From a virus (Duplodnaviria > Heunggongvirae > Uroviricota > Caudoviricetes), in IMG/VR virus record IMGVR_UViG_2548876960_000006: 30,252 nucleotides of DNA, one strand, 5' to 3'. Numbering within the stretch: the stretch's first letter is position 1; the number at the start of each line of letters is the position of its first letter. Below, piece after piece: positions 13,782-18,400 of the stretch. The position numbers and the translations under genes are program-made. Under the pieces are notes generated by a model. The model was not told the origin of the DNA and made no database searches. It worked only from the letters and a program-made list of their open reading frames with translations.

Positions 13782-14234
13782 ATGTTTAGCGGAAAGCCGC
13801 TGGATTATCAGGATGAACCGCTGACCAATAACGGATTCTGGCCAGACCTGAATCTGAAGGATTTTCAGGCGCAGCGGTCACTACCGCCAGATATTGACGC
13901 TGACACCATCAGCCAGGCGCTACTTGCGGCGGTGGCGGAGGTGAATGCGGAGCTGGAAAACGTGGAAGCCAGCTGGAAAGCGAAAGGCAACACGCTGGCG
14001 GCAGAGGTACCAGGCGTAAAAATGGGCGGACTGAACAGCCTGTGCGCCCAGTATATGAAGGCCGTTTTTGCCAGGGCAAAAGCGGATCTGCTGGGGGAGT
14101 TTGCCACCATCGGGCGGCGTGATACCCATCCGGGACAGGAAAGCATGGAAACCCGTGCGGGGTTACTGGCTGAAGCATCGGTGGTGATCCGCCGTATGAA
14201 AGGGCTGAAACGGGCAACGGTGAAAAAAGTATGA
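13782..14234 (+). CDS. head completion/stabilisation protein (P2 gpL-like)
   Basis: 150-aa ORF in the position of P2 L after the terminase small subunit; G-rich RBS. Confidence 0.55.
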   Translation: MFSGKPLDYQDEPLTNNGFWPDLNLKDFQAQRSLPPDIDADTISQALLAAVAEVNAELENVEASWKAKGNTLAAEVPGVKMGGLNSLCAQYMKAVFARAKADLLGEFATIGRRDTHPGQESMETRAGLLAEASVVIRRMKGLKRATVKKV

Positions 14235-14737
14235 GCCAGACGCAGATCCAGAGCCTGACCGCATTTTTTAAAGAGAATGTCCCGCCCCGTGCGATGCGGT
14301 CATTTGACAGTGTGCTGGATGAGATGAAGTTCATTCCTGCGGCGAAGGATTACGGACTGGGACAATATCGCCAGGCGGTGATCCGATATGACGCGGTTCT
14401 GAGCTGGGAGCGTTTCCCGTATCGCCTGTGCCCGCCGCAGCTGCTTATGTCCTTACTGGCGGCGTGGCTGGATGATGCTGACAGGGAACTACTGGATGAA
14501 GTGGGACTGAGTGAAGCCGAACCGGACTGGGATGTGTCGGTGGAGGATGAGGAAGTGGCCACTGTGGTGCTGACTGTTCCGATGGTGGAAGAACTGGTGA
14601 TCAGGCAGGACGAAAACGGGGCTATTCCGTGGCGGGGTGAGCGATGGTCACTGGTTGAGCCTGAAATCTGGACGGCACTGACCGCCAGTATTTACAGCGT
14701 GGATGAGCCCGGTGCGCCGGTGGGGGATAACGAATGA
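14231..14737 (+). CDS. putative tail-completion / head-tail joining protein (gpR-like, tentative)
   Basis: 168 aa; ATGA overlap with L; assignment by position and size only. Confidence 0.35.
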   Translation: MSQTQIQSLTAFFKENVPPRAMRSFDSVLDEMKFIPAAKDYGLGQYRQAVIRYDAVLSWERFPYRLCPPQLLMSLLAAWLDDADRELLDEVGLSEAEPDWDVSVEDEEVATVVLTVPMVEELVIRQDENGAIPWRGERWSLVEPEIWTALTASIYSVDEPGAPVGDNE

Positions 14738-15441
14738 TTGCCGGTGGCGAGCTGAATAAAAAACAGCTGGCCGAATTGCGCAAAGCACTGGCCAGCATGG
14801 AGCTGCCGCCGAGAAAACGGCAGCGTCTGATCTGGCGTCTGGCCAAATATGGCGTGATTGCTGCGGCAAAACGGCATGTGCGCAATCAGGAATCCCCGGA
14901 TGGCCAGAAGTGGCCGGGACGTAAGACAAAACGCAAAGGGAAGATGCTGCGCAACCTGCCAAAGCTGCTGCATATCCGTGAAATGCCAGAAATTCAGGCT
15001 GTGCGGATCTATTTACAGGGCGGCGGATACCGGAACGGGGAAACGCCGGTACCAGCCGGAACGGTGGGTTACGCGCAACAAAACGGAATGCGCGTAAAGG
15101 TCAGCCGCAGTAATCAGCCACGGAAGGCAGAGGCCGGGAAAATGGCGACGCCTGCCCAGGCCAAAAAATTACGGGCGCTGGGGTACCGGGTGAAAACCGG
15201 TAAGCGATGGAAAAAGCCCACACTGGGCGAAATCACCAAAACGATGCCATACAGCCAGGCGGGGCTGCTGATTCGAAAACTCAGCGGTAAAGCCGTGAAA
15301 ACCAGCTGGACAGTGGATCTTCCTGCCCGTGTGTTTCTGGGCATGAATGATGATGAATTTGACAAGGCGCTGGCGCGTCAGCTTCAGGCCATCGGCTTTG
15401 GCTGGGACGTTAAAGCGCAGGATATTAAGGGGAAAGCATGA
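14734..15441 (+). CDS. phage virion morphogenesis protein (P2 gpS / Mu G family-like)
   Basis: 235 aa; basic N-terminal region and ESPDGQKWPGRK segment typical of this family; ATGA overlap with the upstream gene. Confidence 0.5.
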   Translation: MIAGGELNKKQLAELRKALASMELPPRKRQRLIWRLAKYGVIAAAKRHVRNQESPDGQKWPGRKTKRKGKMLRNLPKLLHIREMPEIQAVRIYLQGGGYRNGETPVPAGTVGYAQQNGMRVKVSRSNQPRKAEAGKMATPAQAKKLRALGYRVKTGKRWKKPTLGEITKTMPYSQAGLLIRKLSGKAVKTSWTVDLPARVFLGMNDDEFDKALARQLQAIGFGWDVKAQDIKGKA

Positions 15442-16565
15442 CCTGGCCAATTGTGACCGTAAACCAGGTAAATCAGCTGTTGGGTGAAACCAATGAAGTG
15501 GAACGCACACTGCTGTTTATCGGTTCGGGTACCAAAAATGTGGGGAAAACGCTGGCGGTGAATGCCCAGAGTGATTTTGATTCGCTGCTGGGCGAGGAAG
15601 CCAGTCCGCTGAAAAATGATGTTCTGGCTGCTCTGGCGAACGCTGGCCAGAACTGGTGGGGATTCATTCACGTCCTGCCAGCTGACGCGGAGGCAGATGC
15701 CTGGGTGAAAGCGGTTCTGGCCGCGCAGGTGGTGTGCTCTGTGGAAGGCGTGGTGCTGTCTGACGATGTGACCGCTAAAGCGCAGGTAAATCAGGCCGTG
15801 ACGTTACGATCCACCCTGATTTCAAAGTATGGCCGCTGGGTGTGGTTCATTCTGGCCGCACAGGGAATGCAGGACGAAGAAGCCCAGGCGGATTATCAGG
15901 TACGCATGGCCACCCTTCAGGATGGCATTGCAGAAAAGGCGGTGCAGCTGGTTCCCCGCCTGTGGGGAAATGAACCGGGTGTGCTGGCTGGTCGCCTGTG
16001 TAGCCGAGCGGTAACCATTGCTGACAGTCCGGCGCGGGTTAAAACCGGTGCTCTGATGAATCTTGGCAGTGATGAAATGCCGGTTGATGGTACCGGGGAA
16101 GTGCTGGAACTGGCCACACTTCAGGCGCTTGAAGCACAGCGTTTCAGTGTGCCGATGTGGTACCCGGATTATGACGGTTTTTACTGGGCTGATGGCCGCA
16201 CGCTGGATGTTGAGGGCGGCGATTATCAGTCGATTGAAACCCTGCGCGTTGCGGATAAAGCTGCCCGCCGTGTTCGTCTGCTGGCTATCAGCAAAATCGC
16301 GGATCGCTCGCTGAACAGTACGCCGGGAAGTATCGCCGCACATCAGACACTGTTTGCCCGTCCACTGCGTGAAATGTCCACTGCAGCCAGCATTAACGGT
16401 GTGTCATTTCCGGGTGAAGTGAAGCCGCCGCAGGATGGTGATGTGACCATTGTCTGGAAAAACAAAAAGGCGGTGGATATTTACATTGTGGTGCGCACCT
16501 GGGAAGTGCCGCTGCAAATCACCATCAGTCTGTTACTGGATGCGAGTCTGGAGGCTACAGCATGA
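15438..16565 (+). CDS. putative tail sheath protein
   Basis: 375 aa, immediately followed by a 151-aa tube-like ORF; ATGA-coupled. Assigned by size and synteny, no motif verified. Confidence 0.45.
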   Translation: MTWPIVTVNQVNQLLGETNEVERTLLFIGSGTKNVGKTLAVNAQSDFDSLLGEEASPLKNDVLAALANAGQNWWGFIHVLPADAEADAWVKAVLAAQVVCSVEGVVLSDDVTAKAQVNQAVTLRSTLISKYGRWVWFILAAQGMQDEEAQADYQVRMATLQDGIAEKAVQLVPRLWGNEPGVLAGRLCSRAVTIADSPARVKTGALMNLGSDEMPVDGTGEVLELATLQALEAQRFSVPMWYPDYDGFYWADGRTLDVEGGDYQSIETLRVADKAARRVRLLAISKIADRSLNSTPGSIAAHQTLFARPLREMSTAASINGVSFPGEVKPPQDGDVTIVWKNKKAVDIYIVVRTWEVPLQITISLLLDASLEATA

Positions 16566-17017
16566 CTAAACGTATTTCGGGTATGTCGTTTGACACCTAT
16601 ATGGACGGCGATCTGATCCATATCGAGAAAATCACGCTCGATATTACGGATAACAGCGCTGCCGCCCAGACGCGTGGCGTCCCTGACGGGTATGTGGATG
16701 GCGATGTTGCTGCTGAGGGGGAAATTGAAGTCAGTTCAAAAACACTTCAGGTGCTGACAGCCAAAGCCCGTGCAGCGGGTTCATGGCGTGGGCTTCCCCC
16801 ACTTGATTTTCTTTTCTATGCCAAAGCCAGTAGCGAAGAAATGAAGGTGGAGACGTTCGGCAATAAATTGCAGGTCAGCAACCTGCTGGATATTGATCCG
16901 AAAGGGGGCGGCGTGACCACGCACAAAATCAAATATTTCGTGACCAGTCCGAAATTCGTCAACATCAACGGTGTGCCGTATCTGGAAGCGGAAGCCACAG
17001 AAAACCTGATCGGATAA
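16562..17017 (+). CDS. putative tail tube protein
   Basis: 151 aa, ATGA-coupled to the sheath-like gene. Confidence 0.45.
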   Translation: MTKRISGMSFDTYMDGDLIHIEKITLDITDNSAAAQTRGVPDGYVDGDVAAEGEIEVSSKTLQVLTAKARAAGSWRGLPPLDFLFYAKASSEEMKVETFGNKLQVSNLLDIDPKGGGVTTHKIKYFVTSPKFVNINGVPYLEAEATENLIG

Positions 17018-17657: not shown

Positions 17658-17995
17658 TGAGCAGCGGGCAGTGGCTGGTTGTGGTGGCGCTGGCGTTTGT
17701 CTGGGGCTGGCTGACCGCTGACTGGCGGCGTGACAGCTTAGAGCTGGCGATCAATACAGCGGCGCAGGTGGCCGGTAATGAATCGCGAAAAGTAATGCAG
17801 GGCATTGCCAGTGATTCGGCCAGAGAGCTGGAAGATAAACTGGAGGCGTTAAAAAATGTGGCACCGCGTGAGATACGCACGGAAATACTTAAGCCCGTTT
17901 TTACCAATCGTTGTCTGTCTGATGAGTTTGTCAGCATGTACAACAGCGCCGCAGCCGGTACCGAGCGTGCGTTATCAGGAAAACCTGAAAACTAA
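17657..17995 (+). CDS. i-spanin (Rz-like inner-membrane spanin)
   Basis: 112 aa; TGATG overlap with the endolysin; N-terminal transmembrane segment WLVVVALAFVWGWL then a charged, helix-prone region. Confidence 0.5.
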   Translation: MSSGQWLVVVALAFVWGWLTADWRRDSLELAINTAAQVAGNESRKVMQGIASDSARELEDKLEALKNVAPREIRTEILKPVFTNRCLSDEFVSMYNSAAAGTERALSGKPEN

Positions 17996-18155
17996 ATGCA
18001 CCACGCAGCTGCCGCGCCTGAACGGTACGACAGGAAAAGACGCAGCGGAATTACTGACAATTTATCCTGAAATTTATGGGCAGTGTGCTGCGCGTCATAA
18101 TCAGTTAGTGGACGAAATTAATTTAAGAGAGAGTATGAGTGATGGAACAAATTAA
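17856..18155 (+). CDS. o-spanin (Rz1-like outer-membrane lipoprotein), overlapping the i-spanin in another frame
   Basis: ATG 17856 with GGAGG 9 nt upstream; signal peptide with lipobox LSAC (MWHRVRYARKYLSPFLPIVVCLMSLSAC); overlaps the i-spanin 3' end and extends beyond it. Confidence 0.5.
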   Translation: MWHRVRYARKYLSPFLPIVVCLMSLSACTTAPQPVPSVRYQENLKTKCTTQLPRLNGTTGKDAAELLTIYPEIYGQCAARHNQLVDEINLRESMSDGTN

Positions 18156-18226
18156 ACTGTGTGTTTGTGGTGTTGATATTGTTTTTTGAGCCAAATCAGA
18201 CTGCCTACAACAAATTTATTAATGAA

Positions 18227-18400
18227 ATGGCGATGGATAATAAAGTTGCCCCGGCACATAACTATCTGACGCGAATTGTGGCAACGGAAAGTAAAGAAGC
18301 ACTGGCAGAAGTATTAAAGCGTCCGGGGGCTGCACTTCAACTGGTTGGCAAAGTAAATGATATTTATGCGCCTGAACTGGAAATTGAAGTAAAAAACTGA
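18227..18400 (+). CDS. tail assembly chaperone (P2 gpE-like), zero-frame product
   Basis: Short ORF directly upstream of the tape-measure gene, ending 3 nt after a slippery heptamer. Start uncertain: ATG 18227 has a poor RBS and the track start at 18161 is GTG. Confidence 0.4.
   Translation: MAMDNKVAPAHNYLTRIVATESKEALAEVLKRPGAALQLVGKVNDIYAPELEIEVKN

Follow-up and report, generated by a model that had tools for sequence, protein, structure and literature searches.

The window analysed here is the whole 30,252-nucleotide (nt) stretch of IMG/VR virus record IMGVR_UViG_2548876960_000006, from a tailed virus of the class Caudoviricetes, and the region under study, 13782-18400, is a run of late genes in which a lysis cassette lies between the gene for the tail tube and the gene for the tape-measure chaperone. 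An initial annotation, made from the sequence without database searches, described this region as rearranged. The plus strand from 13782 to 20555 is filled with tightly packed open reading frames (ORFs) whose ends overlap or nearly abut, and every ORF listed by that annotation is found where it had been placed. I called the genes by searching Pfam and PHROG profiles, which gave a match for every one of them, some to families named after phage HP1 (Phage_HP1_Orf24, HP1_ORF34).

All genes in this run are read from the plus strand. It begins with three connector genes, for a gpL-type head completion or head-tail adaptor protein of 150 amino acids (aa) (13782-14234; Phage_GPL, E=1.9e-38; phrog_71 Ad1, E=5e-44), a gpR-type tail terminator of 168 aa (14231-14737; P2_Phage_GpR, E=5e-23; phrog_65 tail terminator, E=6e-32) and a gpS-like tail completion or Neck1 protein of 235 aa (14734-15441; phrog_26, E=7e-33). 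Next come a 375-aa protein assigned as a contractile tail sheath of the HP1 orf23 type (15438-16565; DUF2586, E=2e-135; phrog_907 tail sheath, E=2e-163) and a 151-aa protein assigned as a tail tube of the HP1 orf24 type (16562-17017; Phage_HP1_Orf24, E=8e-64; phrog_1182, E=3e-75). The lysis cassette consists of a 100-aa holin of the P2 gpY type (17027-17329; Phage_holin_3_2, E=6e-39; phrog_175 holin), a 113-aa endolysin that is a small M15 zinc peptidase (17316-17657; Peptidase_M15_4, E=8e-11, and endolysin PHROGs), a 112-aa i-spanin (17657-17995; phrog_1152 Rz-like spanin, E=8e-35) and a 99-aa o-spanin precursor (17856-18155; Pfam LysC (Rz1-like), E=2.5e-6; phrog_2425 and phrog_456). After it lies the short form of the tail assembly chaperone, 79 aa if read from the GTG at 18161, its exact start being uncertain (18161-18400; Phage_TAC_10, E=6e-33), and then the 655-aa tape measure (18588-20555; PhageMin_Tail, E=1e-21; phrog_28, E=5e-100). 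Written out in full, the late order is L, R, S, sheath, tube, the holin, endolysin and i-/o-spanin genes, chaperone, tape measure, DUF2590, J, I, fibre, fibre-assembly protein and three baseplate or hub genes. The profiles thus bear out the initial calls of tail completion, sheath, tube, holin, M15 endolysin, i- and o-spanin and chaperone, together with the coordinates that place lysis genes between tube and chaperone; no search turned the 375-aa and 151-aa proteins into something other than sheath and tube, or separated the membrane protein and the peptidase as a lysis pair.

The sheath and tube calls, which originally stood on size and synteny, now have profile and fold evidence behind them. 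The sheath protein is 52% identical to HP1 orf23 and 41% to K139 orf24, and the tube protein 59% identical to HP1 orf24 and 47% to K139 orf25 (tblastn, as for all identities to HP1, K139, P2 and Mu given here); neither has a match in P2. Phage records with an Orf24-type tube number 76. Compared by sequence with Protein Data Bank (PDB) chains, the two proteins gave nothing meaningful, and because they lack sequence relatives among solved structures I turned to structure prediction and a fold search. The AlphaFold2 model of the sheath is of moderate confidence (predicted local distance difference test score, pLDDT, 63; predicted template modelling score, pTM, 0.66). All of the top 20 PDB chains that Foldseek matched to it belong to structures of contractile tails or contractile injection systems, and those chains that carry a name are sheath proteins; they include DSY3957 (3hxl, E=8e-6), Lin1278 (3lml), phage 812, PVC, phage Milano and the Streptomyces contractile injection system, with diffocin just under the top 20. 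The tube model is better (pLDDT 80), and its leading PDB matches are tail-tube proteins or chains of tail or tube structures, namely diffocin CD1364 (6gkx, E=1.8e-4), phiCD508, P74-26 (8ed0) and the SPR tube in DSR2 complexes, with 8v3t and 9gb1 among the PDB entries. A published survey lists the 375-aa homologue in Cronobacter phage ESSI-2 as a sheath (PMC9230969). Profiles and modelled folds therefore support the reading of the 375-aa protein as sheath and the 151-aa protein as tube. No P2 match to FI/FII-type sheath or tube sequences appeared in tblastn at E<=0.01, and hhalign of the sheath profile against P2 FI returned a probability of 0.1, from a profile that is shallow (Neff 1.35) and says little on deep homology; a distant relationship of the two proteins to P2 FI and FII may exist at the level of fold.

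Within the cassette, the holin is 54% identical to P2 gpY, with no match in the HP1 or K139 records. Its hydrophobic segments span residues 5-27 and 33-60, with a third at about 61-83 recognised by eye, and its C-terminus is charged. Endolysin translation is assigned to the ATG at 17316, which has a GGGAG Shine-Dalgarno sequence ahead of it, and not to the first ATG of the ORF (17199). The protein carries no hydrophobic segment, signal or membrane anchor, and in an alignment with the Listeria phage L-alanyl-D-glutamate peptidase 2vo9 its H55-x6-D62 and H104 fall on the corresponding His, Asp and His; these three residues would be the zinc ligands of an M15 peptidase. The i-spanin, whose start overlaps the endolysin stop (ATGA), has an N-terminal transmembrane anchor with a hydrophobic segment at residues 3-23. 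A signal sequence that ends in an LSAC lipobox at Cys28 marks the o-spanin, and a GGAGG Shine-Dalgarno sequence stands 10 nt before its ATG at 17856. The two spanin genes overlap by 140 nt in different frames, as P2 lysB and lysC likewise overlap, and a Shine-Dalgarno-like sequence precedes each of the four lysis genes. A holin, a soluble endolysin and an overlapped i-/o-spanin pair make up what would be, on these sequence features, a canonical lysis cassette. The RefSeq record of the related Escherichia phage ESSI2_ev040 gives the o-spanin homologue (9608-9796) as a 62-aa 'FIG01049434 hypothetical protein', with a GTG start downstream of the lipobox that drops the lipoprotein signal.

At its end the chaperone gene reads GTA AAA AAC TGA, so that an in-frame slippery heptamer of the X_XXY_YYZ type, A_AAA_AAC (18391-18397, plus strand), stands directly before the TGA stop. 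The -1 frame is then open for 64 codons (18397-18591) to a TGA at 18589-18591, which overlaps the tape-measure ATG at 18588. Frameshifting here would produce a longer chaperone of about 142 aa, with its end on the start of the tape-measure gene. Supporting this, GTA AAA AAC T(G/A)A is found in ev040, ESSI-2, HP1, K139, phiO18P and SI7, with AAAAAAG in phi3 and AAAAAAA in C5a, and the extension is conserved as protein, at 77% identity to ESSI-2, 53% to HP1 (12485-12673) and 49% to K139 (13368-13562). It is always in the -1 frame, measures 60-64 aa across the HP1 group, and has the common motifs ERNGLEQ and LRRHYLPH. The chaperone short form is 45% identical to HP1 orf26 with no match in K139, and the tape measure is 31% identical to HP1 orf27. 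None of the HP1-group records inspected annotates a chaperone frameshift, and those of phiO18P, phi3 and SI7 have a separate 'hypothetical protein' called over the extension. On this pattern the predicted frameshift is the counterpart of P2 E/E+E'. The extension explains the apparent 188-nt 'gap' ahead of the tape-measure gene, and because of it the functional unit would reach 18591 rather than 18400.

Upstream, the head genes form a divergent block, with portal and terminase leftward on the minus strand (7941-10774) and scaffold, capsid, terS and L rightward on the plus strand (10900-14234). Searched genome by genome, all six head proteins match HP1, K139 and P2 in the same order. The initial annotation took this module to be of the P2/186 type, yet each of Q, P, O, N, M and L is closer to HP1/K139 (33-51% identity) than to P2 (27-42%); for L the values are 39% to HP1 orf20, 41% to K139 orf20 and 31% to P2 L. 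Because the head genes are closer to HP1/K139, head and tail can be read as one lineage, that of the HP1 group. Among the other connector genes, the S-like protein is 30% identical to HP1 orf22, and the R-like gene matches K139 and not HP1.

The spacer between terS and L holds an additional plus-strand ORF of 48 aa (13539-13685), preceded by an AAGGA Shine-Dalgarno-like sequence. Its His-rich product, MKESHLQGAHTHTVGAHSHSLGGAHTHTVGAHSHSLSGAHTHTFNTEQ, comes from a tandem repeat with a 45-bp unit (2.2 copies, 96% match), and it matches Pfam Phage_fiber, a tail fibre repeat, in 4 stretches (E=1.4e-5, above the cut-off). At the same spot Escherichia phage ESSI2_ev129 has the same 48-aa ORF ('tail fiber protein'), ev040 and ESSI2_ev015 have an unrelated 65-aa ORF ('L33'), and ESSI-2 lacks such an ORF. 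Apparently this is a variable slot for small genes.

The closest relatives of the window are ev040, ev015 and ev129, phages of the genus Quadragintavirus (Peduoviridae) that came from infant gut viromes (Mathieu et al. 2020, PMC6969025). Nucleotide identity to ev040 and ev015 is 97-98% over 13000-19000 and 95.8% over 89% of the first 25 kb, and ev129 is 97.9% identical from about 13560 onward. ESSI-2, of the genus Seongnamvirus, is more distant (76-77% over 44-89% of the query). Phages belong to one genus, under the criterion of the ICTV, at 70% or more nucleotide identity to the type member over the genome length. For the first 25 kb, coverage times identity to ev040 and ev015 is about 0.85, which places the window in Quadragintavirus. 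That value lies below a species-level full-length identity of at least 95%, and the int/CI/cox and cargo regions differ; the window is therefore a different species, or a variant, within the genus. Among 5426 complete E. coli genomes, 41 carry the same prophage block, with identities reaching 97.3% (for example NZ_CP063503.1, 1724330-1729138).

The comparison with ev040 shows where such differences lie. The ev040 RefSeq record has the same genes in the same order, and the proteins from L to the hub/spike are 96-100% identical, except for the fibre (91%). From cII onward most proteins are 94-100% identical, with lower values for the methyltransferase (89%), the fibre and the scaffold protein (76%). 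The window integrase, CI-type repressor and Cox/Apl-like protein (297-2277), however, show identities of only 51%, 38% and 40% to their ev040 counterparts. This indicates that the immunity and integration module has been swapped relative to ev040, and by its sequence the window phage is likely to be heteroimmune to it. ESSI-2 again shows no change of gene order (identities are 81% for the sheath, 70% for the tube, 83% for the endolysin and 75% for the o-spanin), but has no small ORF between M and L, and its deposited annotation is without a holin and a chaperone.

To see how far this order extends I compared nine reference genomes, each of a different genus and together spanning Haemophilus to Pseudoalteromonas: ev040, ESSI-2, HP1, K139, phiO18P, phi3, SI7, C5a and vB_YenM_324. 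In all nine the lysis genes stand after the tube gene and ahead of the chaperone. Haemophilus phage HP1 (Hpunavirus) has the order of the window (orf20-orf24, hol, lys, orf25, orf26, orf27 and so on), and it shares with Vibrio phage K139 (Longwoodvirus) the whole series Q, P / O, N, M, L, R, S, sheath, tube, lysis genes, chaperone, tape measure, DUF2590, J, I, H, G and three baseplate genes. K139 differs in having an extra small orf23, and a gene for a DksA-like zinc finger after the tube gene. Aeromonas phiO18P, Pseudomonas phi3, Salmonella SI7 and Pseudoalteromonas C5a keep the same backbone order, and in Yersinia vB_YenM_324 the cassette comes directly after the tube. The DksA-like gene stands between tube and cassette in four of the nine (K139, phiO18P, phi3 and C5a), and phiO18P also has a DNA methyltransferase gene inside the cassette.

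Sequence similarity follows the gene order. From sheath to hub/spike the tail genes are 29-60% identical to HP1 and 24-49% to K139, apart from the fibre-assembly gene, which has no HP1 match, and the chaperone short form, which as noted has none in K139. The HP1-type baseplate set is present in HP1 order (DUF2590, E=1e-45; Baseplate_J; HP1_ORF34, E=4e-54; phrog_2258), with collinear matches in both HP1 and K139. Against P2, no tail gene from the sheath onward has a match except at the C-terminus of the fibre-assembly protein, and the same C-terminus is the only match of the tail proteins in Mu (gpL, gpM and gp41-gp48 searched), at 41% over 64 aa (E=2.5e-9). The cassette is a different matter: its lysis genes match neither the HP1 nor the K139 record, these two having longer endolysins and unrelated holins with no homology at the level of BLAST. 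Other phages fill the slot in other ways, with endolysins of 186 aa in HP1 and 195 aa in K139, a longer one annotated as a lysozyme in phi3 and a pesticin-like muramidase in C5a. The M15 peptidase with spanins is found only in the ESSI-2 clade and in vB_YenM_324, and the peptidase also in SI7-type Salmonella phages.

Homology, gene order, similarity of fold and conservation can all be observed directly in these comparisons, and I put the probability at about 95% that the window is an ESSI-2-like temperate myovirus of the HP1 group of the Peduoviridae, a Quadragintavirus or a very close relative, whose region 13782-18400 is the middle of a late operon for virion and lysis proteins, with an order that is ancestral to the group and was not rearranged in this genome. 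No evidence contradicts the assignment to the HP1 group. The order that the initial annotation had taken as rearranged is the canonical one of the HP1 group, its backbone common to HP1, K139, ESSI-2, ev040, phiO18P, phi3, SI7 and C5a. The tail proteins of the HP1 and P2 subgroups have been used to divide the family (PMC10612066), and by that standard the sheath and tube of the window are closer to HP1 than to P2. Several points weigh on the other side. The S-like protein scores 23.4 bits for Pfam Phage_tail_S, about 1 bit short of the cut-off of 24.3; the sheath model has its moderate pLDDT, and template modelling (TM) scores among its top 20 hits are 0.26-0.38; the late intergenic regions lack the P2-type activator site TGT-N12-ACA; the single-transcript model set out below draws only on consensus scans and on the absence of strong internal terminators; and the literature gave no experimental data on the lysis genes or the frameshift of this phage.

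The initial annotation proposed a P2/186-type head and regulation module joined to a differently ordered, partly Mu-like tail module, and a recent recombination of that kind in this lineage would explain why the head genes match P2 at all while the tail from the sheath onward, save one C-terminus, does not. The records of relatives also annotate cII-like and Cox/Apl-like early genes, and a 2023 analysis argues that in deep time one of the subgroups gained a much older paralogue of the tail module (PMC10612066). I consider a recent hybrid very improbable. With every head gene closer to HP1/K139 than to P2 there is no sign of one, head and tail belonging to the same HP1-group lineage, and the same head-plus-tail combination and order recurs in nine genera. 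The resemblance to Mu is one of generic myovirus gene order, the similarity in sequence being confined to 64 aa of the fibre-assembly protein. Thus any replacement of the module would be ancient, already described and not specific to this genome. What stands of the proposal is a P2-family head and regulation module with a different tail module, which agrees with the literature on HP1-like phages (PMC2771037, PMC10612066); that the combination is recent does not.

A narrower alternative is that the lysis cassette alone is mobile and was inserted recently, in this lineage, into a contiguous tail operon. The mosaic content of the slot speaks for it: a P2-gpY-like holin and an M15 peptidase here, and longer endolysins, a muramidase, a methyltransferase and DksA-like genes elsewhere. 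The position is the same in nine of nine genomes, however, which makes the slot ancestral; the genes are tightly packed and translationally coupled, with gaps of 10 nt and 6 nt and overlapping stops and starts, and there is no discontinuity in GC content. I rate this even lower than the hybrid. Lowest of all stands the possibility that the peptidase is a virion-associated, tail-borne cell-wall hydrolase for infection, and that it and the membrane protein are not a lysis pair. Its gene does lie inside the tail block, and tail-associated peptidases exist in some phages, but the protein is only 113 aa long and has no structural domain. Its gene is flanked by a holin whose P2 homologue gpY is annotated as the essential holin, and by the overlapped spanin pair with its anchor and lipobox; no other endolysin candidate was found among the window ORFs searched, and in vB_YenM_324 the homologous block carries the names holin, metallopeptidase, I-spanin and O-spanin. 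Among these readings, an HP1-group phage with an ancestral lysis slot is the one that I retain, and a conserved position with mosaic content fits, by its sequence pattern, replacement in place at a fixed slot and not a new insertion. The idea can be taken further: the junction of tube and chaperone may be a conserved exchange slot of HP1-group phages, at which whole cassettes and extra genes are swapped by recombination, even across the boundary between the HP1 and P2 subgroups. Here the slot joins a P2-gpY-type holin to an M15 peptidase in a tail module that is otherwise unlike P2, save for the fibre-assembly C-terminus. I give this extension even odds.

Turning to transcription, an Ogr/Delta-type zinc-finger gene lies at 7621-7944 on the minus strand (PF04606 Ogr_Delta, E=9e-20). 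The divergent spacer between P and O, that is, between the terminase and scaffold genes, contains a perfect dyad, GTTCGGT-N11-ACCGAAC (10829-10853), which is found nowhere else in the window and has been retained in ev040; the K139 and HP1 spacers, too, have TTCGG...CCGAA dyads. The dyad is a candidate site for an Ogr-like activator, although this is a guess. The P2-type TGT-N12-ACA was considered for the same role and rejected (5 sites against about 7 expected, none in the late intergenic region). A consensus promoter scan found 8 sigma-70-like sites, against 15 in shuffled sequence, and none is sensibly placed inside the region; nor did scans of the region find a convincing internal promoter or a strong internal terminator. 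Past the last tail gene, a strong terminator lies at 27792-27808. With no promoter or terminator in between and a terminator at the end, the lysis genes are most probably co-transcribed with the tail genes, as far as sequence scans can tell. Rfam and tRNA scans of the whole window gave no matches, and the folding of the 100-nt spacer upstream of L (z = -0.29) gave no sign of a structured RNA or attenuator.

A mechanism can be proposed from these elements, in which the functional steps, the single transcript and the frameshift are all predictions. The Ogr/Delta activator would turn on late promoters that diverge from the spacer between the terminase and scaffold genes, and the rightward transcript would probably run for about 17 kb to the terminator at 27792-27808, so that lysis and tail proteins would be made together. 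The timing of lysis would then be set by triggering of the holin and not by separate transcription. Once the holin had permeabilised the inner membrane, the cytoplasmic M15 zinc peptidase would cut the peptide stems of the peptidoglycan, and the two-component spanin would then disrupt the outer membrane. On the virion side, -1 frameshifting at A_AAA_AAC would yield short and long chaperone forms, as P2 makes E and E+E', and both may help the tape measure to nucleate polymerisation of tube and sheath. The R-like protein would terminate the tail, and the L and S-like proteins would complete the head-tail junction.

Two further observations concern the right end of the window. The last tail gene (26076-27779, plus strand) encodes a 567-aa, HP1 orf35-like protein (phrog_2258), the C-terminal half of which weakly matches the oligonucleotide/oligosaccharide-binding (OB) fold of gpV and of type VI secretion systems (T6SS) and the beta-helix repeats of the gp5 C-terminus. 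These matches suggest a fused hub and central spike; in the HP1 group the hub genes come after the fibre genes and not after the tape measure. Beyond the late terminator, 27780-30252 is low in GC (39-41%) and is not shared with ev040. It contains a 238-aa ORF with no Pfam match (28296-29012, minus strand) and a gene for a DUF6338 protein that runs to the window end (29626-30252, minus strand). The ev040 cargo beyond the tail operon differs, with an Abi-family protein and a serine acetyltransferase. This segment is probably variable cargo or host flank.

The discovery value of all this is small, since the gene arrangement is already known from the HP1 genome record, from the definition of the 'HP1-like viruses' in 2009 and from the in-depth analysis of 2023. 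Its practical value lies in annotation quality. In E. coli prophages the RefSeq/PGAP names are 'DUF2586 domain-containing protein' for the sheath and 'phage protein' for the tube, and both can be corrected. Renaming sheath and tube, marking the frameshifted form of the chaperone and moving the start of the o-spanin are corrections that would apply to the prophage type present in the 41 E. coli genomes counted above.

Measured against the best-known systems, the window combines several features of P2 (Peduovirus) with a layout of its own group. It shares with P2 the divergent Q-P / O-N-M-L head block, the gpL, gpR and gpS connectors, the gpY-type holin, overlapped spanins in the style of LysB/LysC, an Ogr-type activator and a -1 frameshift chaperone in the style of E/E+E'. 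The initial annotation quoted the P2 order correctly as differing from that of the window: it runs L, X, Y, K, lysA, lysB, lysC, R, S, then V-W-J-I-H-G and then FI-FII-E-T-U-D, with the lysis genes between L (with X) and R and the tail genes in three operons (O, V and F). P2 FI, FII, T, W, J, I, H, U and D have no BLAST similarity to the window tail proteins, the P2 slippery site is T_TTT_TTG as against A_AAA_AAC here, and endolysin K, annotated only as an endolysin, has no similarity to the M15 peptidase. The likeness to Mu consists of the generic order of sheath, tube, chaperone, tape measure, wedge (W-, J- and I-like), fibre and fibre assembly, but Mu has its hub/spike genes between the tape measure and the wedge genes, and its lysis genes upstream of the head genes. 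The HP1 genome sequence dates from 1996, and HP1 is the phage whose layout the window follows. Lavigne et al. (2009) defined the 'HP1-like viruses' by a P2-like order of capsid genes and tail genes generally without similarity to P2 (PMC2771037), and the 2023 analysis, which split the Peduoviridae into HP1 and P2 subgroups by their tail proteins, placed Seongnamvirus, the genus of ESSI-2, in the HP1 group (PMC10612066).

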